NCBI GenBank assembly: GCA_045837725.1
Contig: JBEWZL010000056.1
Span: forward strand, 62,001-126,000
DNA from: Vermamoeba vermiformis
Lineage: Eukaryota
Length of the DNA: 64,000 nucleotides
Direction of reading: 5' to 3'
Shown here: piece after piece, positions 1,984-43,832 of the stretch
Position numbering within the stretch: position 1 is the stretch's first letter
Layout of the letters: every line of letters begins with the position of its first letter
Notes under the pieces: generated by a model
What the model was told of the DNA's origin: nothing
The model's input: the letters and a program-made list of their open reading frames with translations, nothing else
Database searches by the model: none
Made by a program: the position numbers and the translations under genes

Positions 1984-4788
1984 ATGTTGGCGACTTCAAT
2001 CATTTCCAAGCTGAGCACGGAGCAAATCCGAGTTTGGCCTGGCAGATCTTATCCTCTCGGCGCAAGCTGGGACGGTGCTGGCGTTAACTTCGCTCTTTTT
2101 AGCGAGACAGCTGACAAAGTCGAGCTCTGCTTATTCGATAGCGCTAATGACCAGAAAGAAAAACATCGTGTCTTGATGCAATGGAAGGACGACTACGTTT
2201 TCCACTGCTTCTTGCCTGATGCTCGTCCTGGTCAAATTTACGGCTTCAGAGTGCACGGAGAGTACGATCCTTCCAAGGGTAAGCGGCTTTTCTACCACAT
2301 TGCATTTCGAAAAATTTTCAGATTTCGCAAATCTTTTTGTTAATTTCTACGCTTCAAGAAGATATTGATTATCAATTTATTAATAACTAATATTTAAATA
2401 TAGGTCTTCGCTTCAATCATAACAAGGTTTTGGTCGATCCCTACGCCAAGGCAATTGTCAGACACGCAAAATGGCACGACTCCATGTTTTCTTACAAAAT
2501 GGGCAGCGATGACTTTGCTTTTGACGTATGCAATTACATTGAATATTTTCCATCGATAAATCGAATCCGTAATTAACGGTAGAAATTTCTTGCTTTTGCG
2601 CGCTGGATGCGGATTCCTTTTGGAGTTTTGCTAATTTGACAATATTAGGATACTGACAATGCTGCTTACTGTCCCCTCGCAGCTGTCGTTGATGATGCAT
2701 TCACTTGGGGCCACGACTCTCAGTTAAACATTCCCTGGAACAAAACCGTGATCTACGAAACCCACATCCGCTCATTGACCATGACGCATCCAGAAGTGCC
2801 TGAACATTTGCGCGGTACTTACGCTGGTATGTGCTTCGAGCCTATTATCAACCACTTGAAGGATTTGGGCGTCACTGCTGTAGAATTGATGCCAGTGCAC
2901 TATCATATTGACGAGCGAAACCTTGTCGATCAAGGCTTGTGCAACTTCTGGGGCTATAATACTCTTAGTTTCTTCGCGCCCGATAATAGGTATGAATATA
3001 TAGTGCATTTTAAGAGGATATTTCTATCTATTTTGAGACGAATCTAACTTGATCCTCGCAGATACGCTCACACCGACAATCCTCTCGAGGCTGTTTCAGA
3101 ATTCAAGACTATGGTTCGTATTCTCCACAGTCACGGCATTGAAGTCATTCTCGACGTCGTTTACAATCACACTGCCGAAGGAAACCACATGGGTCCTACT
3201 TTCAGCTTCAAGGGCATTGATAACAGAGCTTACTACCGCGCTGTCGAAGGCGACGCTCGATATTACTTCGATTATACTGGTTGCGGTAAGTATTATAAAT
3301 CTAAAACTCATCGCGTACCGGAGATCTGATCTTCCTTTTTAGGCAACTCTTTGAACGTTCGTCATCCTCGTGTTTTGCAACTCATTATGGACAGCTTGCG
3401 TTATTGGATTACTGAAATGCACGTTGACGGTTTCAGATTCGATTTGGCCAGCACTCTCGCTCGTACTTTTTACGAAGTCGATAAATTGGGCGCGTTTTTC
3501 GACATTATCCACCAAGATCCGGTCATCTCTAAAGTGAAGCTCATTGCCGAGCCTTGGGATTTAGGAGATGGTGGCTACCAAGTCGGTAACTTCCCCGTGT
3601 TGTGGACTGAATGGAACGGTCGCTTCCGTGACGGATGCAGATCCTTCTGGAACGGCAAGGGCGTAACTTTGACTGAATTGGCTAACAGATTGGCTGGCAG
3701 TCAAGACCTTTACCAAGACAGTGGTATGTATATAGCCGTTATCTACTTGGAACTAGTGCTAATTTTATCGTGTTAACTAGGTCGTGCTCCATATGCCAGT
3801 ATCAACTTTGTCACTGCTCACGACGGTTTCACATTGTACGATCTCTGCGCGTACAACGACAAGCACAACGAGGCTAACCGCGAAGACAACCGCGACGGCG
3901 CTAATGATAATATGAGCTGGAACTGCGGTGCTGAAGGCGAGACGTCTGACTTTGAGGTCAACGAACTTCGTTGGAGACAACGTGCTAACATGATGGCCAC
4001 CATGTTCTTGTCATTGGTATGTGCATAATAGGCCCCGTTCTTAATAGACAGACACTAATGTTGCGTTAATAGGGTGTCCCTATGATCTCTGGTGGCGACG
4101 AGTTGTCGTTCACTAAAAAGGGTAACAACAACACGTACTGTCAAGACAATGAATTGAACTACTATGATTGGAACATGGAAGACGAGTTCAAGGTCGAGTT
4201 CTTGGACTTCACTAAGCGCTTGATCAGCTTGCGAAAGAGATTCTCCGTCTTGCAACGTCGCAGATTTTTGTCCGGAAACCCAGTTGGTATTTCAGGCTCG
4301 AAGGACATTACTTGGTTCAATCCTTCTGGCGCCGAGTTGTCCAACGATGAGTGGCACTCACCGAGCACGCAATGCATTGGTTATATTATGGAAGGCAGCG
4401 CGATCAACCAAGTTACTGAGCGAGGCAAGGCTGTCGTCGGTGACACTTTGTTGGTTTTGATCAACGCTCAATTCCACGACGTTAAGTTCAGCATTCCCGA
4501 GCACTTCACTAAGAAGCCATGGTAAGTTATGCTCATAGTATTCATAGTATTTTAATTTCGTTGCTTCCACATGTGGATCCGAACAGCTTACTGACAAAAA
4601 TTTTTTCTCTTAGGACTTTGATTTTGACAACGTCCCTTCGTGACAAGGATAAGACTGGTTACCGATACGAAGCTGGTGATGAATTCGATGTGCAACACCA
4701 CAGCTTGGCTTTGTTCATTATCTCAAAGCGAAATTACGGCTCTATGGTGGAACTCACTAGCAGCAGCGAGTGGTTAGAGCTCCATTAA
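1984..4788 (+). CDS. glgX: Glycogen debranching enzyme / isoamylase, bacterial GlgX type (GH13), about 7 introns
   Basis: [60 protein letters not shown], and catalytic motifs [23 protein letters not shown], then [10 protein letters not shown] and [11 protein letters not shown]. Exons are joined by GT-AG introns (e.g. 2279-2403). Confidence 0.95.
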
Positions 4789-8879: not shown

Positions 8880-9966
8880 AATTTATATAGATCATATTGG
8901 ATTACTTTTAATGGCTATCGTACTGATTTTATTTTTGACGATCCAGATCCAGCGATTAAAGTGTGCATTGTGTGCTATTAAAGTGCGAAATTTCTTTGAG
9001 AAAATACCTGACGAGAATACATCAACTAAAATATAATCGATCAATACCTTACAAGTGCAACACCTGCTGAATTTGTATGGATCCGTTTGGATCAGACAAA
9101 AAATCAACTTTATTTGTTCCCAGTACAATTTTAATACGCTTTAATACGAAACTTTTAATAAGAATGTTATCGCTAAGCAGTTTTTTAGCCGGTTGACGAA
9201 TGCAGGTGGGAATCTTCGGATTCAGGTACGATATCACTCTCTTCCTTCTTCGTGGACATCAAGTGCGGTGTGCGGGAGTCTTTATGTTCCCGTAATATAT
9301 TTTAATAATTAAACCACAAATGATCACTTCCGGGTCGACTACTTACTTTTTGGGGTTAAGTTCCCCAAACTCACTTCTGTTCCAGCTCCACTCTACCTTA
9401 TTTTCAGTACTTATTATTTCATTATAAAACGAAATGTCTGGCAGTTGACCAGAAAAAATGAAGCCTTAAAAATCGAGATCGGTACGGATCGTTCCAGAAA
9501 ATTTCGCAGTTCCTCTGGTGTTTAAGCCAATATTATTATTTTCTGTCGACTAAATCTTTGTAACAAGATAACAACAATGAGCAACGTAGCGCAGATTCTT
9601 CAAGCAGGCGACGCCATCACCTTTATGGAAGTAAGTTCAAGAACGAGTGAAAGGGTATAAGCGAAATCTGTTCGCTAATAACTAAAATATAGGCCGGTGT
9701 CAGATCTCCTTATATGGGATTTTGGTTCATTGGGCTTGAAAAATACCAGCAAAAGAATTTTGGTCGGGCAGATGTGTTTTGGAGACGATTTGATTTGTTC
9801 GGTGGCCTTCAAGTAAGAAATATATTATCTTATTTAACAATTTAACAATTAAATTATTTAATCGTTATTCTAAAGGAGTACAAGTTCACAAATGGAGTTT
9901 GGGGATTTGACGCAAAAACGGATTCAGTTCACATTGACATTATTAAAGAACAGTACTCCTACAATA

Positions 9967-10214
9967 TGTAACGTAAGAAATTACCCGTTGAAGACTTTGC
10001 GCGGATTCGCTATTACCCGGATCGCGTAATTGAATAACATTATTTGAATAATCCAATATCCTAATAGGCTAAATAATATTATTAATAATTATATTAGCCT
10101 AAATAATAATCAAAAAGTATAAATACGCTACTCGCGTAGCGAATCTCTTTGTACCTCTCTTTTATATAATAAACAACACATCTCTTTGTTGTAACAGCTT
10201 ATTTATTTGTTACA
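9967..10214 (+). repeat. 5' LTR of the Gypsy element
   Basis: Reads as identical to 20063-20310. TG...CA termini, internal TATAAATA and AATAAA, inverted repeat TAGGCTAA...TTAGCCTA. Confidence 0.97.
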
Positions 10215-10215
10215 T

Positions 10216-10230
10216 TGGTTCCGATAACGG
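10216..10230 (+). promoter_or_regulatory. Primer-binding site, probably for tRNA-Glu
   Basis: TGGTTCCGATAACGG lies 1 nt after the LTR. Its reverse complement CCGTTATCGGAACCA ends in CCA and resembles the TATCGGA acceptor stem of eukaryotic tRNA-Glu. Confidence 0.7.
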
Positions 10231-10863
10231 ATCCTATCCGATTCTTCACGCGACAACACTTTTCAACTCACATCTGACATCCGACATCCGCTGACATGTA
10301 CACTCGTCGAAGACGCACCCGTGGACGTGGCTCTCGAGGAGGGAGACAATCAATCTCTGCCCCGCAATCACCTTTGGTATCTCCTGCTAACAACAATACG
10401 CCCGCTGGATCTTCAGCTGAAAGTCAGGATGAGGCCCCATACGACTTCGCTGAGGGAGGAGAATTTCGTGACGTGCATGGTAATAATGTACATATTCCGC
10501 CGCAACCTCCTGTCAATAACCAGCAAGTTCCGCCTGTTGGAGTGGCTGATCCGAATCCGAATCGAGCGGAGAATGGAATTCTTTTCGACATCCAACGCAC
10601 TCTACATCGGTCAAACCTCGCTATTGAACGTCTCAGTAACCGCTTGGACATATTTGAAGCTCGTATGGATCGACAAGAGACTTTGCTTCATATGGCTCGC
10701 AACGCTGCTCGGAACAACCCGCAACCTGGCCTGGATCAGCAGCAGAGACAACATAATCCTCCTCAACAATCGTTTAGAGTCGAGGACAAGCACTTCCCGC
10801 AAGCAATCAAGCCCTTTACTGGCAATGGTGAACCTTCTGCCGAAGAGTGGATCAAATCCGTGC

Positions 10864-11058
10864 AGCTACAGTGACGCAGCACTTAGCGTATGAATAGGCC
10901 AAGCGGATCGGTTTTTGGCAGCCCTGGTGGAGAAGTCACGTGCGATTCACACCAAAATTGGAAGTTCGAGGAAATAGAAGTGTCGAACGCCAACGCCAAG
11001 ACTACCACAAGGCTCGTATATTTGACAGAGCCTAATATTTATTTGTTAATTTTTTCTT
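10864..11058 (+). repeat. Split direct repeat A1 (195 bp)
   Basis: Matches 15229-15423. Confidence 0.95.
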
Positions 11059-11080
11059 AATTCGGAAATAAATTTCAACG

Positions 11081-12463
11081 ATGACTGCGAGACAATCGTT
11101 TATCCAGAACCTAGTGGAGACACTCAAGACCCCACTACTCTCAAACTGGCCTGAAGCGCGACTCTGGAAGCAAGCTCTGGGATCCGTGAAATGGTCGATC
11201 ATAGATCAGGCTGGGTCAGATGTGGACCAGCTTCGCTTCTTATGCTCCCTGGCGTTGGCGTACTGCTTAGGAGGGGAGTTTGATCAATTGGAGCGCAGTC
11301 CAGCAGTGTCGAAGGAGGAAATCTCTCGGATCTACTCCAAGGCGGCAGATTTAGTGGAGGATCCGGAGCTGTTGCCGTTGTTGGCCCCAGTGACTAAACG
11401 GGTGGAGAATTGGTCGTCCCAGGGACCTCCTCAGCCAGTGGATCGCCCATCGGAGTCTCCTGAGAAGATCAACTCGGATGGCGACCAAGATTCAGAAGAC
11501 TCAGACAGTACTGAAGCGGAGATTGCCCGAGCTGTCCGAGAGTACATGAAGAAGAAGCGCAATAAACGGCAGAAGATCGGAGAGTCTCAACCGAAGACCC
11601 CTGCTACAGCTCCAGCAGTTCAGATCACGGATGTCCCCCCTCCTAGCGCTTTGGCGAAAGACCCTAAGGTGGCGGCGGGTGCTGACGCACTTATCGCCCA
11701 ATTGGAGCTCAAGTTGTCGTCGATGAAATCGCAGTTGGACTCGCTAGCCGGGAGCCTCGTTCCCCAGAGCCCCATCAACAACTTGCTTTTGCCTCAGCCC
11801 TGGGGCCAATCTTTGATCCACGGAACGTCGAAAGCCACCCCTGTTGGTCAACTGGCGGACGTCCAAGCGACAGTCGAGCTGAGGAAGCCAGGCCAGGTCT
11901 ATCTCCCGCGCTGTTTCACCAAGGAGGCATTGGAGAAGAGGTTGCAACCCTCGCAGGCTAAGGTCCCACAGAACGCGGAGGATTATATCCGAGCGTCGTG
12001 GGAAGTCAAGGACCTCCTCGAGAAGGAGGAAGGTTTTGTCGAGCGAGATTACAATGCCTTTGTCCGCTGGATCGTGGAGCTTGGTGATGGCTACGAATGG
12101 CTCTCAGTTATGGCACTGGACGAGCGCCTCAGATCGCTCCAAGCAGTGGGCAAGCTTCGCTGGAAAGACAGGCCCTTGGAGAGCCTCTTCACTACTCTTC
12201 GAGCGCGTCCAATTCATCAACGTGCCGAGGCCAAGCAGGACAACAAGCCCAAGGCCTTTTCAGGCACCAAGAAGAAGAAGGGTGTCTGCTTTGCTTTCAA
12301 CGGTCACAAGGGTTGTTCGAAGAGCTCTGATGCATGCGAGTACTCTCATTCTTGCTCTGACTGTAAGTCCTCCAATCACAATGTCCTTCATTGCTCCAGT
12401 GGCCCAAAAGGCCATCCCGGCAAGACGAGTTCATCGGGCGCGTCTGCGGAGCGCCGGGAGTAG
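11081..12463 (+). CDS. Gag-like ORF1 of the YR retrotransposon
   Basis: 460 aa with a C-terminal Cys/His finger CFAFNGHKGC...CEYSHSCSDC...HNVLHC and a YEWLSVMALDERLR block typical of DIRS/Ngaro gag. Confidence 0.85.
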   Translation: MTARQSFIQNLVETLKTPLLSNWPEARLWKQALGSVKWSIIDQAGSDVDQLRFLCSLALAYCLGGEFDQLERSPAVSKEEISRIYSKAADLVEDPELLPLLAPVTKRVENWSSQGPPQPVDRPSESPEKINSDGDQDSEDSDSTEAEIARAVREYMKKKRNKRQKIGESQPKTPATAPAVQITDVPPPSALAKDPKVAAGADALIAQLELKLSSMKSQLDSLAGSLVPQSPINNLLLPQPWGQSLIHGTSKATPVGQLADVQATVELRKPGQVYLPRCFTKEALEKRLQPSQAKVPQNAEDYIRASWEVKDLLEKEEGFVERDYNAFVRWIVELGDGYEWLSVMALDERLRSLQAVGKLRWKDRPLESLFTTLRARPIHQRAEAKQDNKPKAFSGTKKKKGVCFAFNGHKGCSKSSDACEYSHSCSDCKSSNHNVLHCSSGPKGHPGKTSSSGASAERRE

Positions 12464-14025
12464 AGATCGTAGCCCGCTCTAGTGCAGTGACCCTCCGCTT
12501 CAATCAGTGGAAGAGATTCTTGGTGGGGGACTCTGACGCCGACTTCCTGACCGACATTTTCAAGCCTGGTGGTGGCCTTCGAGTTGTCAAGGAGGGTGTG
12601 GCTGTGCCAGCGTCTTTCTTGCCGAACTACGCTAGTGTCTTGGAGTGCGAAGACTTCATCCACCAAGACATTATGACGGAACTAGAGAAGGGTTTCATTG
12701 CAGTACTGCCAGTCCAACCATACAAAGTCAATGCTCTTGGTGCAGTCAAGAAGAGCGAAGGCAAGTTCCGTCGCATTACTGATCTCAGTCGCCCAAAGGG
12801 TGCGGCGTTGAATGAATACATTGATTTGGTCAATTTTCAGTTTAGCACGGTCGATGATGCATGCGACTTCATAATGGAAAACCCTTGGGTTTTTGGCTGC
12901 AAGTTCGACATTGAAACAGCTTATCGTCATGTCCCGATCTGGCCGGGTGACTGGCATTACTTTGGCTTCGAGTGGCGTGGCACCTTCTACATCGATCTGC
13001 GCCTCTGCTTTGGTCTAGCTTCAGCTCCTTACGTTTTCTGGAGAATTTCTAATTTCATTGTCCGAGTAGGCAACAAGTTCTTTAACGTGGCCTTCATTTT
13101 GCCCTACATTGACGACTTCCTCGTGCTTTCTGTTGGCACTGACTCTGATGCTGCACGCGCTCAAGCTTGGAAAGACTTCGTCAATTTCCGCGAGTGTCTA
13201 ACCGAATTGGGTTGGCCAATTTCAGAGAAGAAGATGGTTGAGCCCTGTCAGGATCTGGTCTTCCTTGGCATCCGCATCAATATGCATGATCGCATCATTT
13301 CTTTACCAGAAGACAAGCTAGCTGACCTTCTCGACATTCTACGGAGCTTCAAGGATCGAGTTTCGTGCACTAAGCGCGATCTGGAGCGCTTGATTGGTAA
13401 GCTCAACTTCGGCGCTAAAGTGATCAGGGGCGGACGCACTTTCCTCCGCCGCATGATCATCCTGGCCAACTCGGTCCCAGAGCGACATCACGTGGTGTCT
13501 CTAGACGATGAATTCCGTGCAGATTTGGATTGGTGGCTTCGATTTGCGAGCGCCTGGAATGGCAAAGCCGTTATGCTGGACCCAATGCCCATTGACATGC
13601 GTCGGTTTGAGGTGGACGCCTCAAATAGTGCTGCGTGTGCTATCTTCGACAAGCACTTCATCGTGCGGATCCACGACCCTTTGACATCTGCGTGGCACAT
13701 CAATGATAAGGAGTGCCTTTCAGTCTACTTGGCTGCGCTTCGCTGGGCCCCAGAATGGGCCAACAAGCGGGTGATCGTCTCATCGGACAATACCACGACC
13801 GTTTCGGCCATCAACAAGGGGTCTTCAGCATCCCCAATCATCATGCGAATGCTACGGTCTCTGTTTTGGCTATCAGCGACACACAACTTTCACTTGACTG
13901 CGGTCCACGTACCGGGGGTTCTTAACGACCTGGCAGATGCGGGTTCGCGATTGAATTTCGACAAACTGATTGACAAAGGGCTCTCCATGCAGTTGTGCCC
14001 CGAGTTTGATCCAGAATGTCTTTGA
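12391..14025 (+). CDS. Reverse transcriptase / RNase H of the YR retrotransposon (no N-terminal ATG)
   Basis: KFRRITDLS, KFDIETAYRHVPI, LCFGLASAP, YIDDFL, FLGIRI; RNase H motifs VDAS, HINDKE, SDN, HVPGVLNDLADAGSR. Confidence 0.95.
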   Translation: MLQWPKRPSRQDEFIGRVCGAPGVEIVARSSAVTLRFNQWKRFLVGDSDADFLTDIFKPGGGLRVVKEGVAVPASFLPNYASVLECEDFIHQDIMTELEKGFIAVLPVQPYKVNALGAVKKSEGKFRRITDLSRPKGAALNEYIDLVNFQFSTVDDACDFIMENPWVFGCKFDIETAYRHVPIWPGDWHYFGFEWRGTFYIDLRLCFGLASAPYVFWRISNFIVRVGNKFFNVAFILPYIDDFLVLSVGTDSDAARAQAWKDFVNFRECLTELGWPISEKKMVEPCQDLVFLGIRINMHDRIISLPEDKLADLLDILRSFKDRVSCTKRDLERLIGKLNFGAKVIRGGRTFLRRMIILANSVPERHHVVSLDDEFRADLDWWLRFASAWNGKAVMLDPMPIDMRRFEVDASNSAACAIFDKHFIVRIHDPLTSAWHINDKECLSVYLAALRWAPEWANKRVIVSSDNTTTVSAINKGSSASPIIMRMLRSLFWLSATHNFHLTAVHVPGVLNDLADAGSRLNFDKLIDKGLSMQLCPEFDPECL

Positions 14026-15091
14026 CAGCGGAAGATTACATTGGCCTCGGCTATGTGGACTCCACGGTCAAGGCCAGGCAGGCAGTGGTTTCGGCCTTTG
14101 CCAGGTTCTGCTACGCTTCGAATCGAACATTCTTCCCGACGAACGAGTTTGTCCTGGCCGACTACGCGGCATATCTTGCAAATAATGGCGTCAAGGCAAG
14201 TTCGATCAAGACATACTTGACAGCCATTTTCGCTTTTCAACAGTTGCATGGTGGCCCACACCCAGCGCGTGACAGCCTTCGCCTCAAGGTGGTCCTCAAG
14301 GGCATTAAACGCGCGCAGTCCTACACACCGTCGAGCAAGCACCCTCTCACTCCTGTGGAGTTGCTCAAACTCAAGGCGTGCTTAGACTGGTCATCATCTC
14401 TCCACCGCACTTTCTGGGCTTGCCTCGTGGTCGGCTTCTGGTCTTTTCTTCGGGGTGGAAACCTTGTGCAGAAATCTGCGAAGAAATTCGACCCAGCAAA
14501 GCATCTCAGCGCGTTGAACTTGTCAAGGAACGAGCGTGGTTTCTTAATTTCGCTCAATCGAACGAAGACAGTCCAATTCAACGAGAGAAGGCTGATCATC
14601 CCGCTGCTCTCAGTACCGGGAAATGCGCTGTGTCCCGAAGTGGCCCTGGAGGCGATGTGGGCCTTGTGTCCCATGCCTGAATCGGGGTCGATTTTTTGTT
14701 TTAAAGGTGATGACGGTAGAGTTATGCCGCTGGTGCACTCGAAGCTTAACGATAGTAAGTATCGTGGCAGTAGTTGCATATTGTGCTTACTTACCTGTTT
14801 TCTCCAGTGATCAAGAAGACCTGCCTTCAGTGCGGGTTGGATCCGAAGGATTTCTCCGCACACTCGCTGCGTAAAGGTGGCACGACGGGAGCCTTCATCG
14901 CGGGAGCGGACAGGGTGATGGTCAAGGCTCAAGGAGACTGGGTGTCAGACGCCTACATGCGTTACGTCACTTTTTCTCTGGATCAGCGCTTGTCAGTCCC
15001 ACAGGCGATCATCGAGGCGATGAGAACTCCTCAATTTTTTGAGCGCTGCTCTTCCTTGTCTCTGGCGACGGCGGCGGCAATCTATCAATGA
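14016..15091 (+). CDS. Tyrosine recombinase, join(14016..14754,14808..15091)
   Basis: SAM-like N-terminus (ASSIKTYLTAI), catalytic R (FLRGGNL) and K (RTKT) in exon 1. HSLRKGG and GDWVSDAYMRY in exon 2. Intron GTAAGT...CTCCAG. Confidence 0.92.
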
Positions 15092-15120
15092 TCTGGTTTG
15101 GGGGCTCGTTCGCTGTGTTT

Positions 15121-15228
15121 GGGGGCTTTGGTGCTCTCGTTAGCCCCAACCCGTGGCGGGGGGTGACGGGGAGCCACCACCCCTAATAAAGCTGAATTTA
15201 CCCCCACGAGCAGCGCAGGCATTCGTGC
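15121..15228 (+). repeat. Split direct repeat B1 (108 bp)
   Basis: Matches 15457-15564; GC-rich; contains AATAAA. Confidence 0.95.
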
Positions 15229-15423
15229 AGCTACAGTGACGCAGCACTTAGCGTATGAATAGGCCAAGCGGATCGGTTTTTGGCAGCCCTGGTGGAGAAG
15301 TCACGTGCGATTCACACCAAAATTGGAAGTTCGAGGAAATAGAAGTGTCGAACGCCAACGCCAAGACTACCACAAGGCTCGTATATTTGACAGAGCCTAA
15401 TATTTATTTGTTAATTTTTTCTT
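15229..15423 (+). repeat. Split direct repeat A2
   Basis: Matches 10864-11058 and directly abuts B1. Confidence 0.95.
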
Positions 15424-15456
15424 TTTAATTTTTATTTTTATTCACGTTGTACAATA

Positions 15457-15564
15457 GGGGGCTTTGGTGCTCTCGTTAGCCCCAACCCGTGGCGGGGGGT
15501 GACGGGGAGCCACCACCCCTAATAAAGCTGAATTTACCCCCACGAGCAGCGCAGGCATTCGTGC
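15457..15564 (+). repeat. Split direct repeat B2
   Basis: Matches 15121-15228 and forms the right end of the element. Confidence 0.95.
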
Positions 15565-16320
15565 GCTCATTTATCGAAGACCAAGAAGGATGGACCGAAG
15601 CTATGAAGAAACAAGTCTTCTATTGCAGAACAAGTGATGGTGCTTATAATCACTTGGTTATCGCTAGTTTGGTATCAAGCGACATACTTTCGAAGAGATC
15701 TTGACTGAAATTCTCAACGAATATGGTGGTGGCAACCAAGACATGGTAAACTCGCTTCATATGAAAAATCTTGAGCAGTCTGACACTGAGACTGTCTCTG
15801 AATATTTTATGAGATTTTACAAGATCGCATCCAGAATTTCGAACCGATCTGACAGCGACAAAATGCATGATTTTATTTCAGGACTTCGTCTTGATATTCA
15901 AGAGTCCGTCGTGCATAAACAGCCCACCTCATTACATCAAGCTGTCGAGTTAGCTAAGAACGCTGAAGCCTGGACCGCGATGTATGGCAAGAAGAGAAAG
16001 AACGCTGCCAAACCTGCCCCGGTTCAACAAACGACCGTCAAGCCCTTCTTTTTCAGCAGAAACAATGGTCAATCGCCTCAACGCACGAACCCAATGGTCA
16101 CATCTGGATCTCCTCAGAATAATTCCAAAGTCGCGACTCCCGCTGCGACAAGCAAGTCAAATCAAGCTGCGACGCCCAAGACACCTGCGCCTAGCAACTT
16201 TGCCAAGAGACTTGACTACAACACCCCTTACCGCCCGCAACAGTTCAACAACATTGACGCATCCGAACTGGATCTTGACGAGAATTACGTTTTGGACGAC
16301 GATGAACTTGACGTCGACCA

Positions 16321-19300
16321 GGAAAACGACCAGTTGGAGGAGTAAATGGCTCGCCTCACTCCTTAGAGCAAGAGCCTTACAGCTCAATACCCTTTGAACT
16401 ACCCATTCTACAGCCCGACTACAACCCTTACCCAATCAAACCTCTCATCATACCTGCCTTTGTTCACAACATATTATCCGACACTTTATGGGATACTGGC
16501 GCCTCAAGATCGTTCGTCACCCCAGATCTCGTCAACGAACTCAAGATCAAGACTCACGCTGGTACACTCAACGTCAAAAACTCAAATCAACAACGGACAA
16601 CGCTCACTCACTATGCAATTGTTCCTATTCGACTCACTAATGGTTTCTCTATGGACTTCAAATTTTGGATCAACGACAAAATCAACTTTCCGCTAATTTT
16701 TGGTATGGATCTACTTAACGTCATGAAGCCTGTTCTGGATTTCGAGACTAGGCAAGTCTATTTTAAGCCTAGGATTATTCCCTACTCACCAGACAATATC
16801 ACGCGCGATACAACGATCATTCAACTGGAACGAGATCTACGCGTTCCCGCTCGCTGCGAGATGCGCTGCTCTTTACCTACTAATATGGCTGATGGTACCT
16901 CTGGTCTCATTGAACGTGCCGAATCTATCTCTGATCAATATGGCGTTACTTTGGCTCACAGTTTAACGACATCCAAAAATGGAAATATTATTGTCCGATT
17001 CTTAAATCCTCACGATACGGACATTATCATCAAGAAGAACACCAAAATTGGTCGCATAGTGCCCTATGAATTGCTTAATGAATTCTCTGACGAAGACTGC
17101 ACGTACACACAAGAAGAATTCTTCGCACCGTTCAAACTCGAAGAACGCTACAAACACTTGACTGCGCAACAACTAGAAATGCTCAAAAACACTATTTGGA
17201 AATGCCGCAACGCCTTCTCTTTTGGTTCTGACGCTCAACCTGGTTTAACTGACAAAGGAGAACATCGCATTGACCTTACTGACGAAACTCCGTTCAAACA
17301 GCATGCTTATCGCGTTCCGTACACTCAACGTGAATTCATGAAAGAGAAAATCGATCAAATGCTGGCTCAAGGCGTCATCTCAGTCTCGTCATCGTCATTC
17401 GCTTCACCTGTGGTTTTGGTTAAGAAGAAAGATGGCTCTCTACGATTCTGTGTGGACTATAGAAAACTCAATGGCGTAACTGTCAAAGACTTATATCCGT
17501 TGCCGAGAATTGACGACATGCTAACTTTACTTAACGGCAATCTTTATCTCTCAACACTAGACGCAGAAAATGGCTTTTGGCAGACCCCACTAGTGCCTAA
17601 AGATCGTCACAAAACTGCTTTCATCACTCCGTTTGGACTCTTTGAATTTAACCGGATGCCGTTTGGTCTTTGCAACGCTCCGTCAACATTTCAACGTCTT
17701 ATGGATGTGGTACTCTCTGGACTATTATGGCAAATCTGTTTGGTATATATGGATGATATTATCGTATTTGGACGCTCGTTCGAAGAACACTTACTAAATT
17801 TGGAAACCGTACTCAAAGCGCTCATCACCGCTGGTATCAAGCTCAAGCCCAGCAAATGCAACTTTTGTCAGGAAGAACTCAAATTCCTTGGTCATATCGT
17901 ATCAAAAGATGGCATTGCTACGGATCCAGAAAAGATCGAGAAAGTCAAGAATTCCCGAGAACCAACCAACGTCGAAGAATTACGCTCTTTCCTTGGACTT
18001 ACTGGTTACTATAGAAAATTCATTCAAAACTATGCTAATATCGCAGAACCTCTCATTCTACTCACCCGTCAAAACAACGCTTGGAAATGGGATCTCGCTC
18101 AACGATCCGCTTTCGAAGAGCTTAAGAAGAGGTTAACAGAAGCACCCATTTTAGCTCATCCCGATTTCGACTTGCCCTTCATTCTCTACACTGACGCTAG
18201 TTCCGTTGGACTTGGTGCCGTTTTATCACAAATTCAAGATGGAAAAGAACGCGTAATTTCGTACTGGTCCTCGACACTTGACCCTGCTAAACGAAATTAT
18301 TCCGCTACTGAAAGAGAATATATGGCCGTCGTCGAAGCTGTCAAGAATTTCCGTTACTACTTACTTGGAAAGAAATTTGAATTGGTCTTGGATCATCAAT
18401 CACTCGTCTTCTCACGCACTATGAAAGATGGAAATCAACGACTACTCAAATGGAGCTTATTTTTGCAAGAATATGATTTTGACATCGTTCATCGCTCAGG
18501 AAAATCACACTCGAACGCAGATGCACTCTCGCGATTGCCGATCGTCACTCTCAACAACATAATTGAAGAAGAAGTCGACATGCCCATCAATTTCACGACA
18601 GAACAAATCCAACAAGCCCAAGCTTTGGACCCTCTTATCAAGCCGCTCTTGGATCTCGTCACTACTCGATCCAAATCTAAAAATAGAAAGAAACAAAAGA
18701 AGTTAGAAGATTTCGTGGTCGAAGATGGCATATTATATCGCAACTATAGACCTAGTGGCATCGAAGAATTAATTCAGCGACAACTGGTACTTCCGCTCAC
18801 GCTCCGACCTCAGATCCTGAAATTCTATCACGATTCCGCTATTGGTGGTCATTTTGGATTCATGAAAACATATGGAAAAATTAGAGAACGCTTCTACTGG
18901 TTTGGAATGGCTAAAGATATTCAACACTACGTCTCATCTTGCGAATCCTGCTGTCGAAGGAAAATTCAACGCAAGATCTTTGGTGAACTCACTCCAATCG
19001 TCGTAAGCGAACCCTTCGAAATATTAGGAATGGATCTATTAGGTCCCTTCAAACCAACCAAGCACGGAAATAGCTACATTCTCGTCATGAGCGATCACCT
19101 GTCAAAATGGGTCGAAGTTTTTCCGCTCGCCGAAATTACATCAGCTGACATCGCTAAAATCTTGGTCGAAGAAGTAATTTGCCGCCATGGCTCCCCTCAG
19201 AGAATTCTCACTGATCAAGGCGACAATTTCAACTCGCAACTCGCTCATCAGATCTACAACATTCTCGCTGCTAAGAAAATGCGCACTGTGGCATATCACC

Positions 19301-20067
19301 CTCAAACGAATGGACTCACTGAACGCTTCAATCAGACTCTCGCTCAACAACTCACTCCGTTCGTCAACGAGAAGAAATTTTCAATTGCCTACAAAGTCGC
19401 CAAGCAAAACGTTGCTCAACGCAACGCTGATCTCAAAGAAGACAAGAAGTATCTTTACAAGAAGAAACAGAAGCTCAAACCGAAAGACATAGTCTGGTAC
19501 GCGCTCGCAAAACTTCCGCCTGGAACGACGAAGAAATTGGCTTATCGCAACATTGGTCCCTATGAAATCGAATCACTTCGTGGCAACAACGCACTCATAG
19601 TTAGTCCCACTGATCCAAAAGATAGACTCTACGTCAACGTTGGACAACTACGACTTCAGATCCCTCGCCGAAAAGAATTGGATATGGAAATTTCATCTTC
19701 TACCGATGAAATCTTACCCGCCGCTGATGACACGCCGCCTACACCTCATCAACGATCGCCGCCTGCGAAAACTCAACGAAAAACCACTGCCCGAAGAAGA
19801 AAATCTCCGTCAGATCTACTGCTCGAAAATCTACGCCTTATCTACACCTCAGTTCGAGATGGTGAAATGCTCAACGCATTCAAGACATCGCTGAAAGAAG
19901 CTATTGGCGAAGGTAGTGCCTGGACTACGTCAACGAAAGTCAAGAAACAATGGGAAAATCAGATCGTCACTGCAAGCACCGCTGCCGCCCTCAAAGAACT
20001 CATCGACAAATTCATCAAAGAAAATAACTTGGAGGACCAAGTCAAAGCTAACGAGGGGGTAATGTAA
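16321..20067 (+). CDS. pol: Gypsy pol (PR-RT-RNase H-IN), probably expressed by -1 frameshift; integrase appears internally deleted
   Basis: The frame is open upstream of Met 16651 and contains protease LWDTGAS. RT LRFCVDYRKLN and YMDDII; RH YTDAS and NADALSR; IN HHCC, GMDLLGP, TDQG, NGLTERFN, IGPY. The stop lies within the 3' LTR. Confidence 0.93.
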   Translation, partial: GKRPVGGVNGSPHSLEQEPYSSIPFELPILQPDYNPYPIKPLIIPAFVHNILSDTLWDTGASRSFVTPDLVNELKIKTHAGTLNVKNSNQQRTTLTHYAIVPIRLTNGFSMDFKFWINDKINFPLIFGMDLLNVMKPVLDFETRQVYFKPRIIPYSPDNITRDTTIIQLERDLRVPARCEMRCSLPTNMADGTSGLIERAESISDQYGVTLAHSLTTSKNGNIIVRFLNPHDTDIIIKKNTKIGRIVPYELLNEFSDEDCTYTQEEFFAPFKLEERYKHLTAQQLEMLKNTIWKCRNAFSFGSDAQPGLTDKGEHRIDLTDETPFKQHAYRVPYTQREFMKEKIDQMLAQGVISVSSSSFASPVVLVKKKDGSLRFCVDYRKLNGVTVKDLYPLPRIDDMLTLLNGNLYLSTLDAENGFWQTPLVPKDRHKTAFITPFGLFEFNRMPFGLCNAPSTFQRLMDVVLSGLLWQICLVYMDDIIVFGRSFEEHLLNLETVLKALITAGIKLKPSKCNFCQEELKFLGHIVSKDGIATDPEKIEKVKNSREPTNVEELRSFLGLTGYYRKFIQNYANIAEPLILLTRQNNAWKWDLAQRSAFEELKKRLTEAPILAHPDFDLPFILYTDASSVGLGAVLSQIQDGKERVISYWSSTLDPAKRNYSATEREYMAVVEAVKNFRYYLLGKKFELVLDHQSLVFSRTMKDGNQRLLKWSLFLQEYDFDIVHRSGKSHSNADALSRLPIVTLNNIIEEEVDMPINFTTEQIQQAQALDPLIKPLLDLVTTRSKSKNRKKQKKLEDFVVEDGILYRNYRPSGIEELIQRQLVLPLTLRPQILKFYHDSAIGGHFGFMKTYGKIRERFYWFGMAKDIQHYVSSCESCCRRKIQRKIFGELTPIVVSEPFEILGMDLLGPFKPTKHGNSYILVMSDHLSKWVEVFPLAEITSADIAKILVEEVICRHGSPQRILTDQGDNFNSQLAHQIYNILAAKKMRTVAYHPQTNGLTERFNQTLAQQLTPFVNEKKFSIAYKVAKQNVAQRNADLKEDKKYLYKKKQKLKPKDIVWYALAKLPPGTTKKLAYRNIGPYEIESLRGNNALIVSPTDPKDRLYVNVGQLRLQIPRRKELDMEISSSTDEILPAADDTPPTPHQRSPPAKTQRKTTARRRKSPSDLLLENLRLIYTSVRDGEMLNAFKTSLKEAIGEGSAWTTSTKVKKQWENQIVTASTAAALKELIDKFIKENNLEDQVKANEGVM
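20053..20062 (+). promoter_or_regulatory. Polypurine tract
   Basis: GAGGGGGTAA immediately before the 3' LTR. Confidence 0.75.
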
Positions 20068-20310
20068 CGTAAGAAATTACCCGTTGAAGACTTTGCGCGG
20101 ATTCGCTATTACCCGGATCGCGTAATTGAATAACATTATTTGAATAATCCAATATCCTAATAGGCTAAATAATATTATTAATAATTATATTAGCCTAAAT
20201 AATAATCAAAAAGTATAAATACGCTACTCGCGTAGCGAATCTCTTTGTACCTCTCTTTTATATAATAAACAACACATCTCTTTGTTGTAACAGCTTATTT
20301 ATTTGTTACA
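20063..20310 (+). repeat. 3' LTR of the Gypsy element
   Basis: Reads as identical to 9967-10214 and is followed by TSD CAATA. Confidence 0.97.
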
Positions 20311-20811
20311 CAATAATAAAGGCGAGGACGATGATATTCAAGATCTGCATAATGGTCATAAATCGTTCGTTTTGACCAAAGCTTCAGAAGCTGAGATCGC
20401 ATCCCGATACGCAGATCTCGGAGATTTGAACGAAGAAGACGCTGAAAAGATCAATGCAGATAAAATTAAGCAGCATGTTAAATTTAGTAGAGTAGATCCG
20501 GAATCTACTGACAAATCCAGCATGGCGACTCCACCGTCAGAATTAATTTTGGTTGCTCATGGTGCGAGAGACATGGATGATGTAACTATCGGACAATTTA
20601 ATAGCGTTGAAGAGCTTAAACAATATTACGTCGAGAATGGATTTGATTTGATATTCCTTTAAATTTTCGCTGGTGAAAATAAATTAGATCCAAACGAAAA
20701 GAAAATTTTGGATTTAATATTGTCTTATTTATTACATGGTTCGCTGCAAAGTGAAATAAAGTTGCATTGATGTTATTACCTTATTTAGTAATCGAAAATT
20801 CTATCGATCGC

Positions 20812-24292: not shown

Positions 24293-25500
24293 TTATTTCT
24301 TCTCGTCTAAGTGGGTGTTGTCGTCATCAGGCAGGACTTGTACTTTGTGTCTATAATACAGCCCGTCCTTGCTCATCGTACTAGACTTCAATTTGTACCA
24401 TAATGTATTTAAGCCACTTTTTTGCCATAATTTCCTCGATTCTTCTAATTTTTCTAAATTTTCATCTCGAAAAGTCGTGGATGCGGACTTATGACCAGCA
24501 TTTAACGAGTAGAATAATGAAGGTCTTGATGAATACGTTAACTTCAATCCCGCCAATTTAATTCTGTAGCTGAAATCGTCATCTTCGCCTCCCCAGCCCC
24601 AATAATCATTCGAATAGCCATTTATAGCCACAAAATCGGCTCTATTAACGCACGTGACTGTTCCAGCGAATCCTCTATAAATATATTTCCATCCTATAGT
24701 TAAGAACGTTAGCCAGATTGCTCGATCCAAAGCTTTATTTTATTTTAATTTTAATTTTCAAGTTTAATAGAATCCATGTTATTAATATTAACAATTATTT
24801 TGGACGCTTGATATTTTTATGTCGATCGCGTTGTTGGACTGATTTATTAAAGTTTTAAGATTGCATTTCGTATATTTTCGGTTAAAGAGTCATATTCATA
24901 GGGTTAGCCTTACCAAACTTTTGAATGAGCACGCCAAGCTGTCTAGGCTTCTCAGGATATGAATAATCAACGCATGGTGAGGCTGGAATAGTGTCTACGT
25001 CATGAAGACAAAAATAATCGTGATTTGATTGCGTCAAGTTGAATCCAATATTTAGTAGCTTGGCTCTATTGAATATATGCATGTCGTCTTGCTCTATTAC
25101 ATGAATAGAGAATTTTATGTTGAGATCCTGAAAAAACGCGTGCATCATTTGAGAAAAGGCTTGAAGGTGCATTTCGCGGTTTCTGAATGGTACTAATATT
25201 GCTAATGTATGATTACTATCGGGAGCATTATCATATCTATCTTCAGGACCTTGACAAAGTCTCGAATCTGTATTCAAAAATTAGATCCAAATACGGATTT
25301 GAAACAAAAAAGAGTTAAACTCACATAATTTATTCATACCGTGTAAAATAATTATAGTAATATTATATGTACATACCAGAACATTCTGCGGGTTCCCAAG
25401 TCGGTCCCAGAAAAAATTCAATGTTATAGGCGATCAGCAAGCCCAACACCACTAAAAATAATAGCGATATAACCACACGCAGCAACATAGGCCTAGCCAT
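24293..25500 (-). CDS. Beta-1,4-galactosyltransferase family (GT7), type II membrane protein
   Basis: LAILVPFRNR, FNRAKLLNIGF, CLHDVD, INGYSNDYWGWGGEDDDF; N-terminal TM exon from ATG 25500. Confidence 0.9.
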
Positions 25501-28009: not shown

Positions 28010-31000
28010 ATGGCAGCTCCAACGAAGGTATATACAAAAGCTGAAGCCAGACGAATCCGTTGGCAGGTGGATGTGGCGAAGATTTTTGTCTAATAATTCA
28101 AATATTATAGGAAAATGTAGTTATATTGCTCGATGTTGGTCTGGGGATGACTAAAGGCAAAAAATCAACGGAATTATTGGAAGGCGCGATCAAAGCCGTT
28201 ACTTTGCTAGTGCAACAAAAGGTAATCATTTTGCCCGCTCCAAATTAATTAATTAACTTAATTATAATTTTTAATCGCATTATTGTTCGGTTAGGAACGC
28301 ATTTTTGAAATTTAACTCGATCCCGCCTAAATTGCCGTAATTTCGTCGAAGCGAAAATTATTGGAAATAGAATCTATATCGTGCAATATTATTTTGAATT
28401 ACTAACGAATTTTTCATAGATTTTGTACAGCAGTAAAGATGAATTAGGTCTCGTTTTATTTGGCACGAACGGTAAGTTGATTAGCGATTCATTTATTTAA
28501 CCTTTAAATTATTATTAATATGCCAATAAGCCGTATGTATAATAATACAACGTTAAATTAATTACATCGACTACGGAATTATTTCTGATTTTTTAATTTA
28601 GAGACGAATAATGATTTGGCCGAAGGAGGACGAGAAGGCTATGAAAATATCAATGTGATGTATAATATCTTACCACCTAATCTTAAATTGCTACGTGATA
28701 TTGAATCAATTACGCCTGGCGATGCTGAAGCCGATTGTAAGTACACGCGATCTAGATCTCGCTGTCACCGTCATATTTTAATTTGAATAGGCATTGTCGT
28801 TAATATTAAGCAAATAGTGCAACCTATAATAATATCCAAACAATATTATACTCAATTATAAGACAGATCTGATTTTTTCATTATCGGATCTAGCTTCGTG
28901 AATGTTACTTTTTTTGCAGTAGTACGAATTTAATACTAATATTATTTTTATACTATTATAGTCATTGCAGCACTCATCGTGGGCATGGACATGTTGATAA
29001 AAAAAGCAGGTCAGAAGAACGTTCAAAAACGTATTTTCTTGGTGACGAATGCTGGGTCACAAGTGTTCAAAGAAGACATGCCTATTGTAGTCGATAAATT
29101 GAAGGAGATGGATGCCAGATTGAACGTTATGTAAGTTACTTCTATTTTCAAAATTTTGTAGGATCCAAATCACACCTATAATTCAATTCATAACGCTTAA
29201 ATATAATGCGTACAATAATTTCATGAATGGATCGATTGGGTTTTTGATTGCTTAAGATGGTGTTATTAATATTTTTTGTACTATAGTGGTGTTGATTTTG
29301 CCGATGAACATAGCGCCAACAACAATTTGAACCAATCGAACAAAATTAAAGCAAAAGATAAAGTCAAGGTACGTACTATTCTTCTACGATCATTATTTCC
29401 AAATTAGGCAATTGCCTTACATAAAGAGCACACGAACAAAATTTTAGAGTTGTTTACCGTGTTAATTTTTTTGCCTTTTATAGCAAGAAAATGAAGAACT
29501 GCTGCGCGAGTTGTGCGGTCAAGTGAAAGGTGTCGTAGTGCCAGTGACACAAGCCATTGAAATGATGTCGTACTTCAGATCCAAATCCGTGTTGCAAAGA
29601 ACTAGTTTCAGAGGATTCTTCGAAGTGAGTCAATTCGTTAAAATTCCTGTGTGGGCCTTTAAGAAGACTGCTGAAATGAAATTTCCTTCTTTGGCAAAAG
29701 TTTCCAAGGTCTCCCAAGAATGTAAGTGCGCACGTTATTGCCATTTATAGTCCTAGAAAAAAAAAAAATGACCTTATTAATTTGCAAGTATTAATTTGCA
29801 GCGGAAAATCCTGGCACGATGAATGTTATTCCGCAGCGCACGTTCCACAATGTGATGGATGAAAATCCAGACGAAGAAGTTCCCGAAGCACAACGAGTGA
29901 AGGGCTACAAATATGGCAAGACTCTCGTACGTATCTCTTACATTACTTTCATGAACGCCATTCACTGAATTGTTGATCGATCTAGGTACCGTTCTCCAAA
30001 ATCGACGAAGACGCGTTGAAATTGCAAACAGAGTCGGAATTGAAATTGATCGGTTTTAGCGCTAAAACTAATGTGCCACGTAAGTTTAATACGCCATTAC
30101 CATTTTAGGCAAGTATATACTCATCGATCCCTTTAGGTCATCACTATCAAGCTGATGTCGAGTGCATCACTTCGTTGCCCGGTGATCCTGATGCTGCTGT
30201 CGCTTTGAGCGCATTGGTAAGTAACGAAATTTCAATTTTCACCGAAGGAAAATCACGTGACTACACCTACAAATTGATCTTCAAACGGTTATTGACATTC
30301 AATTTATCAAGTCGACTGAGCCTAATTTCCTTTATAGATTCATGCCCTGGCCGAAACTAACTCCGTGGCCATCGTCCGATTCGTGAAAAGAAAAAATGCA
30401 CCGCCACAACTGGGTGTGCTGACGCCGAGCATTAAGACTGACCACGAAGTGCTGTACTACAACAAATTGCCTTTTTCGGAAGATATCCGACAGTATGCCT
30501 TTGCACCTCTTTTAAGCAATACTACGCGCAAATCTTACGTGCCGAATGAAGAACAATTGAACGCCGCGGAAGAATTGATCAACGCACTGGATCTCACTAA
30601 AGCTGCGACTGATGAGGACGGGTACGTCATAAAACACTTTTTTACTAACACGTTATTAACAACTATGATAATCCTTTAAGTAATAATTTTCTGTGTTTTT
30701 ACATGAAGAAATTTTGTGTTTTTTGGCCACACGTGCTGACCGGTGGATCTGACGACTAATTTTCATTCGTGTAGAAATCCGATTGAAGCTCTCAAGCCTA
30801 AATACACGTACAACCCGGCACTACAACACTTCTACCAAGTACTACAGTCACGTGCCATGCAGCCTGAAACACCACTACCGCCTTTGGATCCGCTCATTGA
30901 AAAGTACGTGAAAATATAATTACAACCCACCCCTACTGTTATCAGCATAACATGAAACATAATAATATTTCGCCCTATCGAATTTTCATATGATATACTT

Positions 31001-41300: not shown

Positions 41301-42195
41301 CTTGTGCATGAGACTTATATGACCTTTCCAGGGCTGAAATCTACCATTTCTCGATGTCAGGTGCCAAGCCTGGCTTTTCCAAGTTAAAACCAGCTGTGAT
41401 TACGCTCATCATATTCTTGGGCGTGGCCTTCATTGTGCTGCTAGCGCTGTTCTTGGCGATAGTTGTGCCCGTTATCAAAGTAGATTGCACGACTCCTGAA
41501 GATGAAATCAACGCGAGAACGGCAACTGAAGTCGTTGCAATCGTCTACAAAGTCTTTTTCGCCGCTATTTGCATCACGTTGTCGGCCTTGTTTGTGTTGT
41601 ACGGCGCACGCATTATTCGACTCATGAGACAAGGTCAAGCCCAATCTGACAAGAATAAGATAATGAAACGAAAGAAGACGATGTACAGGGTAAGTTATTA
41701 ATTAGCCAATTTTACGTTTGACCAAAGTTTGACCGACATTCATTGCTCGATCTGGTTTATTTTTCGCTTGCTATGCTAATTTTTTAATACTTATTAATGT
41801 CTTATATTTAGTTGATGATTATTTCCGGCGTTTCTGCGGTTTGTCTGCTCGCTCAAGCAGCGAATCTGTTCTGGAGTTCTTTCGACCAATCCCGAAACAT
41901 CTATGGTGTATTAATCTTCTTATACGTCATAGAAATAGCGCCTTCTATCATCTTCATATTAATGTTCAAACGTGGCTCTTTGTTCTCACGATATAACCGA
42001 AAACGAGATGCGACTGGATCCGGCAGTGGTCAAGGCTCTACTGCTAGCGGCAATGCTACTAGTATGAGGACACGTATGCCTAGCATGGGACAGTCAGATG
42101 CACTCGAAAGATCCGAAATCGCAGACAGATCTGAAACGCTTGAAAGATCCGAAGTTATTGATCGATCAGAGGTTGTTGAAGAGTCCTCTGAGTAA
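35301..42195 (+). CDS. Large Cys-rich ectodomain 7TM receptor-like protein (THH1/TOM1-like membrane domain), about 20 exons
   Basis: Signal peptide exon at 35301, many Cys-rich exons, then TM region with ELPALLFCYIYSIIVLRWAEIYHF, LFVLYGARII and YVIEIAPSII; tail with ERSE/DRSE repeats. Confidence 0.7.
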
Positions 42196-42351
42196 TCCTT
42201 TGCACTAACGTTAATGAATTGTTTGTATAATATATCGTAATAATAAAATGCCCATTCCGCAAAACCTGAAAAAGCGAATTCGGCGACAGAAAAAAAACGA
42301 ATTGATCGATTTAGTTTTGCTTATCTGACTAGACCTACAACAAATACAAAA

Positions 42352-43759: not shown

Positions 43760-43832
43760 AACGAGTTTGTTACAAAAAAATGAGAATTTAGTACAGTGAG
43801 CAAAATAAGCACCACCATTAGCCACTAACAAA

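Follow-up and report, generated by a model that had tools for sequence, protein, structure and literature searches.

A 64-kb stretch of DNA from Vermamoeba vermiformis (assembly GCA_045837725.1, contig JBEWZL010000056.1, positions 62,001 to 126,000 of the forward strand; hereafter the window, in which positions are counted from its first nucleotide) was found to carry a tyrosine-recombinase (YR) retrotransposon of Ngaro structural type, 4,701 nucleotides (nt) long, at 10864-15564 on the forward strand. The element lies within the gag gene of a Ty3/gypsy element, and its YR gene is predicted to be interrupted by a 53-nt spliceosomal-type intron. Two pairs of direct repeats frame it: repeat A1 (10864-11058) and repeat A2 (15229-15423) were identical at 195/195 nt, and repeat B1 (15121-15228) and repeat B2 (15457-15564, the right end of the element) at 108/108 nt. 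The order along the element is A1-gag-RT/RH-YR-B1-A2-33 nt-B2 (RT/RH, reverse transcriptase and RNase H); B1 starts 29 nt downstream of the YR stop codon, the B1/A2 boundary is an internal copy of the B-A junction, and the 33-nt spacer between A2 and B2 (15424-15456) is AT-rich and unique to the 3' end. The repeat pairs, their coordinates and this order had been proposed in an initial annotation made from the sequence, and all were recovered. A 48-nt word of A and a 49-nt word of B each occurred exactly twice in the window (expected number in 100 shuffles, 0). Identity of the A pair runs a further 8 nt leftward beyond A1 (202/203 nt), owing to a resemblance between the left flank and the end of B. 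The region 9500-17000 contained no pair of inverted repeats of at least 20 nt, and an Rfam search of the whole window gave 0 matches.

The gag-like open reading frame (ORF; 11081-12463, + strand, 460 amino acids (aa)) is complete and carries near its C-terminus a CCCH finger (residues 403-423) followed by a CCHC knuckle of the form CX2CX4HX4C (residues 425-438), both identified by pattern. The protein matched no Pfam family. A search with it retrieved 96 proteins at E<=0.001, two of which scored at E<=1e-30 (one identical, one 32% identical). Pfam zf-CCCH was matched by 17/61 gag relatives, and a profile of the gag family searched against the PDB detected solved tristetraprolin-type CCCH fingers (E=2.8e-8 to 3e-5). 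The finger and knuckle pair was also aligned in the gag of a more distant element described below, L001 (E=7e-9), in which the N-terminal 335 aa showed no similarity (E=0.64). A Ty3-type capsid was considered as an identity for this protein and rejected: hhalign comparison of the gag family with the gypsy gag of the window gave a probability of 0.4%, and the PDB profile search returned CCCH fingers only. The label gag is used here as a putative one, based on the position of the ORF and on its nucleic-acid-binding fingers.

The RT/RH open frame (12367-14025, +) lies in the -1 frame relative to gag, overlaps it by 97 nt, and was assigned by Pfam, by a 16-sequence alignment and by motifs. The Pfam family RVT_1 was matched above its cut-off (E=4.1e-8) and RT_RNaseH below it (E=0.006). 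The RT motif YIDD was located at residue 239 (counting from 12391) and the RNase H motifs as VDAS, DKECL, SDN and LADAGSR; YIDD and the RNase H residues were invariant in the 16-sequence alignment, and the window protein has them. The first ATG of the frame is at 12673, and 6/15 relatives have an RT protein whose initial Met lies at, or no more than 6 alignment columns from, the position of a GTG codon at 12487 of the window. Within the gag/RT overlap a C CCA AAA heptamer (12403-12409, +, in the gag frame) is a candidate -1 frameshift site. RT could be translated by one of three candidate routes, namely -1 frameshifting at this heptamer, initiation at GTG 12487, or initiation at ATG 12673. No introns were found in gag and RT, both of which are continuous frames, and RT aligned with its relatives without extra segments.

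The ATG of the YR gene (14016) overlaps the RT stop by 10 nt. Read without splicing, the frame from this ATG ends at a TGA (14808-14810) after 264 aa, and the part containing HSLR, GDW and YMRY is encoded in a different frame (14774-15091). Excision of the GT..AG interval at 14755-14807 (53 nt, +) yields a single YR frame of 340 aa. The interval has the make-up of a phase 1 spliceosomal-type intron, beginning with GTAAGTAT and continuing through CTTAC and a pyrimidine tract to CAG. Exon 1 (14016-14754, +) would encode a SAM-like N-terminal domain and the first half of the catalytic domain, with the catalytic Arg in FLRGGN and the Lys in RTKT, and exon 2 (14808-15091, +; stop codon 15089-15091) would supply the HxxR motif as HSLR, the Trp in GDW, and the region of the catalytic Tyr as YMRY.

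The tyrosine recombinase superfamily is recognized by the residues R...K...HxxR...H/W...Y and by the Cre/integrase fold, and both were found here. R, K, HxxR, W and Y were invariant in the YR alignment, and all of them are present in the spliced product of the window. A profile built from 4 uninterrupted YR relatives matched Cre (E=1.6e-9) and XerD (E=5.6e-4). A Foldseek search with an AlphaFold model of one of them, P0125, returned Cre chains as about the top 30 matches (E of about 1e-8, TM score about 0.4), followed by Brujita Int, XerA, XerH, XerD, Tn1549 Int and Flp. Cre of phage P1, the closest solved structure, resembles the YR of the element in being a two-domain tyrosine recombinase in which Trp takes the place of the second His and the HxxR and Tyr motifs are present, and differs from it in sequence (about 20% identity) and in that the YR of the element belongs to a retroelement.

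The intron was tested by homology. A search with exon 1 gave 13 relatives (47-99% identical), of which three (P0125, P0131 and P0133, 326-343 aa) were uninterrupted and aligned without gaps to the spliced window YR across the junction (LNE/LIK... in the window against LND/MIK... in the relatives, the slash marking the junction). The other 10/13 were interrupted at the same codon: nine ended 2-21 residues past the junction, and one, P0127, had 18 additional residues in frame at that point. Directly past the junction, 10/10 interrupted relatives had S, C or R, and the tails that follow differed between relatives. These three residues correspond to NGT codons, as expected for a phase 1 intron beginning with GT. 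Introns of the surrounding genome were available for comparison in a GlgX-like gene at 2026-4543, where five GT..AG intervals with in-frame stops (125, 123, 57, 57 and 56 nt) have 5' ends of the form GTAAGY or GTATGY, one of which is GTAAGTAT. In its length and 5' splice site the predicted YR intron is thus built like host introns.

An explanation without splicing is that the YR gene is broken, the 53 nt being a mutational insertion or frameshift and the copy being dead or dependent on a recombinase supplied in trans. The stop that the ORF meets at 14808-14810 unless it is spliced would agree with this, as would the lack of a significant Pfam match for either YR piece. Damage peculiar to this copy is, however, difficult to reconcile with an interruption at the same codon and in the same phase in 10/13 relatives as little as 47% and as much as 99% identical, with tails that differ among relatives as expected of non-coding sequence, with canonical boundaries (GTAAGTAT, and the pyrimidine tract before CAG) at a length matching host introns, and with two exons that are otherwise intact and hold all catalytic residues. 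A broken gene was considered very improbable, and the YR gene of the element is taken to be interrupted by a spliceosomal-type intron whose position is common to most relatives and which would be removed by splicing. The intron-free genes (P0125, P0131, P0133 and that of L001) may derive from copied spliced RNA or from a state preceding the intron. A tentative pairing of YR with RT proteins by equal lengths of their contigs (4336, 5046 and 4439) would place intron-bearing elements on both sides of the deepest split in the RT clade described below.

The enclosing Ty3/gypsy element (9967-20310, +) has long terminal repeats (LTRs) of 249 nt (9966-10214 and 20062-20310) that are 100% identical and have TG...CA ends, and the 5-nt sequence CAATA flanks it on both sides (9962-9966 and 20311-20315). 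Pfam families of its pol were RVT_1, RNase H, Integrase_H2C2 and rve, and that of its gag was Retrotrans_gag. It is a young element and the target of a nested insertion: the YR element sits within its gag, and when 10864-15564 is removed, the gypsy gag frame continues for 45 more codons (read by eye). No target-site duplication was present at the insertion of the YR element. The 8 nt to the left of A1 match the end of B at 7/8 positions, and the last five of them (CGTGC, 10859-10863, +) are exactly the last 5 nt of repeat B; no match was found on the right side. The ends of the element are thus fixed to within a 5-nt overlap. The chance of an exact 5-nt match at one fixed position is about 1 in 1,000 (by arithmetic). 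In DIRS1-like elements, recombination takes place between 3 nt at the junction and the same 3 nt in the genome, and no duplication arises (PMC3266345, in the part of the text available); the insertion in the window fits the recombination model described for them, with CGTGC as the presumed crossover microhomology. Inverted symmetry of the lox/dif kind around the B-A junction was also considered and was rejected (2 spanning repeats against 2.79 expected; 100/200 shuffles as good).

As a separate observation, the gypsy gag shifts its reading frame at 15615-15702, independently of the nested YR element. This frame break holds a 53-nt GT..AG interval (15615-15667) with a weak 5' end, GTCTTC, which may be an intron or a frameshift mutation, and chance is possible.

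Assignment to a class was made by structure. As the available parts of PMC4157794, PMC3266345, PMC3783388 and PMC9210276 describe them, DIRS1-like elements have inverted termini, an internal complementary region and a methyltransferase (MT)-like domain, and PAT-like elements have split direct repeats together with an MT domain. The Ngaro layout is A1-[ORFs]-B1-A2-B2, with the internal repeats downstream of YR (excerpts of PMC4157794 and PMC9210276). VIPER-like elements are confined to kinetoplastids and form a separate RT clade (PMC6681497, available portion); in the host genes of the window, introns are short and of the common GT-AG kind. The window element combines RT/RNase H with a tyrosine recombinase instead of a DDE integrase, no rve or DDE domain being detected by Pfam inside 10864-15564, and its split direct repeats have the internal repeats 3' of YR. 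No Pfam match to an MT (Dam) domain was obtained in any ORF of the element, and the three ORFs fill its interior. In all 16 aligned members of its clade the RT ORF ends directly after RNase H, and among the 28 RT relatives of at least 580 aa (out of 120 listed) none had an MT domain, the extra length sitting N-terminal to RT. Thus the element has the split repeats of PAT-like elements without an MT after RNase H, and it has neither the inverted termini and internal complementary region of DIRS1-like elements nor an MT in the pol ORF. It is Ngaro by structure, set apart from PAT and DIRS1 by structural features. The layout, the lack of inverted termini and the lack of an MT domain noticed in the initial annotation all held, with 0 inverted repeats of at least 20 nt and no Dam match.

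Descent from PAT or DIRS1 with secondary loss of the MT, the likeness to Ngaro being only apparent, would produce the same structure. Features of YR elements are subject to homoplasy, the MT was lost in a derived Pat1-like lineage of Caenorhabditis briggsae, and Pat1 Gag has zinc fingers (all from the accessible text of PMC4157794), as does the window gag, which has two. Such a loss would, however, have to extend well beyond this copy, because the 28 long relatives, the 16 clade members and the more distant L001 (likewise gag-RT/RH-YR without MT) show the whole detectable RT neighbourhood to be free of it. Also against it is the position of the internal repeats, which follow YR as in the descriptions of Ngaro cited above. 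MT loss was judged rather unlikely, and the assignment to the Ngaro structural type was retained.

The search with RT retrieved 133 proteins at E<=0.001 among 8,000 scored candidates. Of the matches listed, P0001 was 100% and P0002 76% identical, fifteen were 53-59% identical, and the rest were 29-42% identical. In a FastTree phylogeny of the window RT and 120 relatives, the window protein was placed in an 18-member clade (support 100, stem 0.78) separate from sequences named from Ptychodera, Stylophora and Ephydatia. A scan of genome contigs found one locus, L001 (JAAETJ010000066.1, 5,234 nt), with 42% RT identity. It holds a head-to-tail tandem array whose copies recur every 4,185 nt or so and are about 91% identical, in the order gag-RT/RH-YR, with an uninterrupted YR of 327 aa and no MT domain. 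The contig is filed under a bacterial metagenome-assembled genome (MAG) yet carries a YR retroelement of eukaryote type, and is probably eukaryotic DNA binned with a bacterium; the RT relatives P0036 and P0044, named as proteins of Candidatus Thiodiazotropha MAGs, may reflect similar misbinning.

The tandem arrangement of L001 indicates that tandem arrays do form in this group, and it raises an explanation in which the A2-spacer-B2 segment is not an integral part of the window element but was left behind by a second tandem copy with an internal deletion, or by recombination between copies. A remnant of this kind is opposed by the spacer, which resembled the element interior no more than expected by chance (score 10; shuffles mean 9.3, maximum 12). 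It is opposed as well by the perfect identity of both repeat pairs, since in the split-direct-repeat model, in which repeat parts anneal with each other, A1/A2 and B1/B2 must be identical at insertion (PMC6681497, seen in excerpt). Moreover, A-[ORFs]-B-A-B is the described norm for Ngaro, and the Xenopus repeats are of comparable size (A 236 nt, B 152 nt) and 100% identical (PMC9210276, in its available part). We regard a remnant as quite unlikely, and the terminal segment is treated as belonging to a single Ngaro-type element.

Candidate signals were located in both repeats. A TATATT word lies near the 3' end of A1 (11017-11022), 64 nt upstream of the gag ATG, and AATAAA occurs in both copies of B (15185-15190 and 15521-15526), 38 nt before the end of B. 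In L001 the interval from the YR stop to the gag ATG contains AAATAAA and then TATAAG, in the same order as in the window. A much stronger signal is a 13-nt G-rich word, TGGGGGCTTTGGT, which follows the YR stop at one and the same distance (31 nt, counted from the first base of that codon) in the window (15120-15132) and in L001 (583-595), elements with 42% RT identity between which it is conserved. The longest word shared in 300 shuffles averaged 8.05 nt, and 13 nt was reached in 1/300. Its two occurrences in the window are those at the starts of B1 and B2 (15120-15132 and 15456-15468), and it is read as a conserved candidate cis signal marking the inner boundary of repeat B, with strand priming, guidance of a template switch or binding of the recombinase as candidate roles. 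Near this boundary, a near-duplicate of the G-rich start of B1 lies just upstream (within 15089-15135, where TTTGGGGGCTCGTT is followed by TTTGGGGGCTTTGGT), and L001 likewise has two G-runs at the position of the B1 start. RNA structure was not significant either in repeat B (z=-1.33; 15/200 shuffles as good) or in repeat A (z=-0.45).

From these elements a replication cycle can be proposed. The RNA would start near the 3' end of A1 and end past the AATAAA in B2. The internal B1-A2 copy would then supply the terminal sequence absent from the RNA, allowing the cDNA to close into a circle, and the Cre-like YR would recombine the B-A junction of the circle with a short matching target, crossing over at CGTGC in the present case. 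Experiments on DIRS-1 have demonstrated linear single-stranded cDNA intermediates and a requirement for the internal junction region (PMC7192593, portion available). Because the intron was inherited across relatives, the RNA that is copied must normally be unspliced. Such unspliced RNA would serve as the template and would give only a 264-aa YR product without HxxR, W and Y, and active recombinase would be translated from spliced RNA only, so that splicing would divide the transcripts into a template pool and a pool of recombinase mRNA. The resulting proposal is that a Ngaro-type clade has kept a spliceosomal intron in the YR catalytic domain down to 47% YR identity, losing it occasionally by copying of spliced RNA, and that splicing acts as a switch between template and messenger, alongside a conserved G-rich signal at the start of B that marks the generation of terminal repeats. 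It is put forward tentatively, at somewhat less than even odds. If it is true, template RNA would be separated from messenger RNA in a way that was not found described for tyrosine-recombinase retroelements in the literature searched.

The more general conclusion, to which we assign a probability of roughly 0.8, is that a recently inserted and apparently functional element with the Ngaro structure interrupts the gag of a young Ty3/gypsy element in the window. Youth is indicated because both repeat pairs are identical and the element is nested inside a gypsy element whose LTRs are identical too, which agrees with the description young given in the initial annotation. The intactness suggested there is likewise upheld by the motifs: RT has YIDD, RNase H its acidic residues, YR its catalytic residues and gag its zinc fingers. 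Its three complete ORFs had to be revised, in that gag is complete, whereas the RT/RH frame has no ATG before 12673 and YR is split. Several points weigh against this conclusion and against the cycle proposed above. Splicing, the transcript ends, the circles and activity are all inferred. The TATA-like word and AATAAA are short and could occur by chance, their roles (for the former, that of a promoter) being putative, and the model needs read-through of the first AATAAA because B1 carries the same signal as B2. RNA 3' of the C CCA AAA heptamer folded no better than shuffles (z=0.12), which leaves frameshifting weakly supported. All Pfam matches of the YR pieces and of their relatives were below the curated cut-offs (Phage_int_SAM_5, E=0.02; Phage_integrase), and the AlphaFold model of P0125, built from a 4-sequence alignment, was of moderate confidence (mean pLDDT 60.9, pTM 0.53), its Cre matches having the TM score given above. 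A YR tree rooted with L001 had an unresolved backbone and did not settle the ancestral state or the sequence in which the intron was gained and lost. Ngaro ancestry is not established by structure alone, because the Pat1-like lineage lost its MT (PMC4157794, text available in part). Finally, no further copies or fragments of the element were detected in the window by blastn or tblastn, so that it is represented there by a single copy.

Compared with known Ngaro-like elements, namely Xenopus DIRS-53_XT (PMC9210276, as far as its text was available) and those of Cafeteria burkhardae (PMC8547959), the window element shares the A1-[ORFs]-B1A2B2 layout with identical repeat pairs, the order gag, RT/RH, YR without MT, and repeats of a size similar to the Xenopus values given above. 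Nesting inside other mobile elements is shared with the Cafeteria elements (PMC8547959). It differs from Ngaro-like elements in that its YR is split by a spliceosomal-type intron and that it has no SGNH-hydrolase ORF. Its length is 4.7 kb against about 6-7 kb in Cafeteria (PMC8547959), and its RT is only 29-42% identical to the listed relatives outside the 18-member clade. With PAT-like elements (Pat1, Toc3 and Kangaroo) it has in common split direct repeats, RT/RH with YR, and, in the case of Pat1, zinc fingers in Gag, whereas PAT has an MT-like domain (both from available passages of PMC4157794) and the window RT ORF ends right after RNase H. With DIRS1-like elements (Dictyostelium DIRS-1) it shares RT/RH with YR and a duplication-free integration at a short identity between element and target, which amounts to 3 nt in those elements (PMC3266345, partial text) and to 5 nt (7 of 8) here; inverted terminal repeats, an internal complementary region and an MT domain are found there, and none of them in the window element.

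Introns are known from other retroelements. Transcripts of the LTR elements Ogre, CRR, copia and BARE1 undergo splicing (PMC3735527), and Penelope-like elements retain introns (PMC3846280; also PMC4209133, available in part). The window element resembles both groups in that an intron is kept through replication, which implies that spliced RNA is normally not the template, and the BARE1 intron is also small (104 nt; PMC3735527). In BARE1 and copia, however, splicing removes pol to favour Gag, and the unspliced RNA encodes everything (PMC3735527), whereas the window element, which belongs to another order, would need splicing to make its integration enzyme. The available text of PMC3783388, PMC4157794, PMC3266345, PMC6681497 and PMC9210276 contains no mention of introns in YR retroelements, and PMC8547959 mentions introns only in contexts unrelated to Ngaro. 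Literature searches on the subject likewise brought up no paper dealing with it; an earlier description in the founding Ngaro paper or in the reviews of Goodwin and Poulter or of Poulter and Butler is possible. The class of the element is already known and ordinary, and the conserved YR intron is its unusual feature; the findings on the intron, the 13-nt word and the insertion site leave the classification unchanged.

Among tyrosine-recombinase retrotransposons, Ngaro elements have to our knowledge been studied least, and the way they replicate is so far modelled on paper only. The window provides an unusually clean copy with perfect repeats, intact genes and an empty site that can be rebuilt in the gene of another element, and this cleanness gives exact ends and a 5-nt (7 of 8) match between donor and target, consistent with conservative recombination that leaves no duplication. 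As a simple natural marker, the conserved intron could tell which RNA becomes DNA in this element class, and a specific candidate for a cis signal is found in the conserved 13-nt word at the B start.

The per-kb GC content of the element (0.52-0.54) exceeded that of its flanks (0.33-0.38), as had been pointed out in the initial annotation, in which horizontal acquisition was offered as a possible reason; the higher GC was confirmed, and the acquisition was left unsupported, since the GC at third codon positions (GC3) of the element overlaps the top host value and its intron is host-like. In figures, the GC of the element was 0.52-0.56, and GC3 was 0.60-0.66 in the element, 0.42-0.52 in the gypsy ORFs and 0.43-0.56 in most host ORFs, with one host exon at 0.64. 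A recent horizontal arrival from another host would be compatible with GC and GC3 values above those of the gypsy ORFs and of most host ORFs, and with the closest non-identical RT relative listed being only 76% identical. It is countered by the host exon with a GC3 of 0.64, by the intron at 14755-14807, which is host-like in length, 5' splice site and GC (0.42), and by the Ngaro elements of Cafeteria, which are GC-rich relative to the elements they enter and for which no transfer was claimed (PMC8547959). Recent transfer was considered unlikely; an intron in the style of the host's own speaks for the element having long resided in hosts that splice in this way.

Several other genes were noted in the window. 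Long ORFs (up to 435 aa) with raised GC at 32614-35011 and 38349-45451 had no Pfam family or a marginal eIF-5a-like match. Host genes include an ORF with an F-box and ankyrin repeats (52669-54105, +), a Ku beta-barrel exon (30338-30676, +), and exons of a beta-1,4-galactosyltransferase (GT7; 24296-25280, -), one of which resembles mammalian B4GALT1 (E=2.6e-19). The GlgX-like gene used above for comparison of introns (2026-4543, +) encodes a debranching enzyme of the GlgX/isoamylase type, 43-73% identical to the bacterial-type GlgX P0136 over three aligned pieces. Among named proteins, its best relatives are from planctomycetes. With at least five short GT..AG introns, it may be a eukaryotic gene that came from bacteria.

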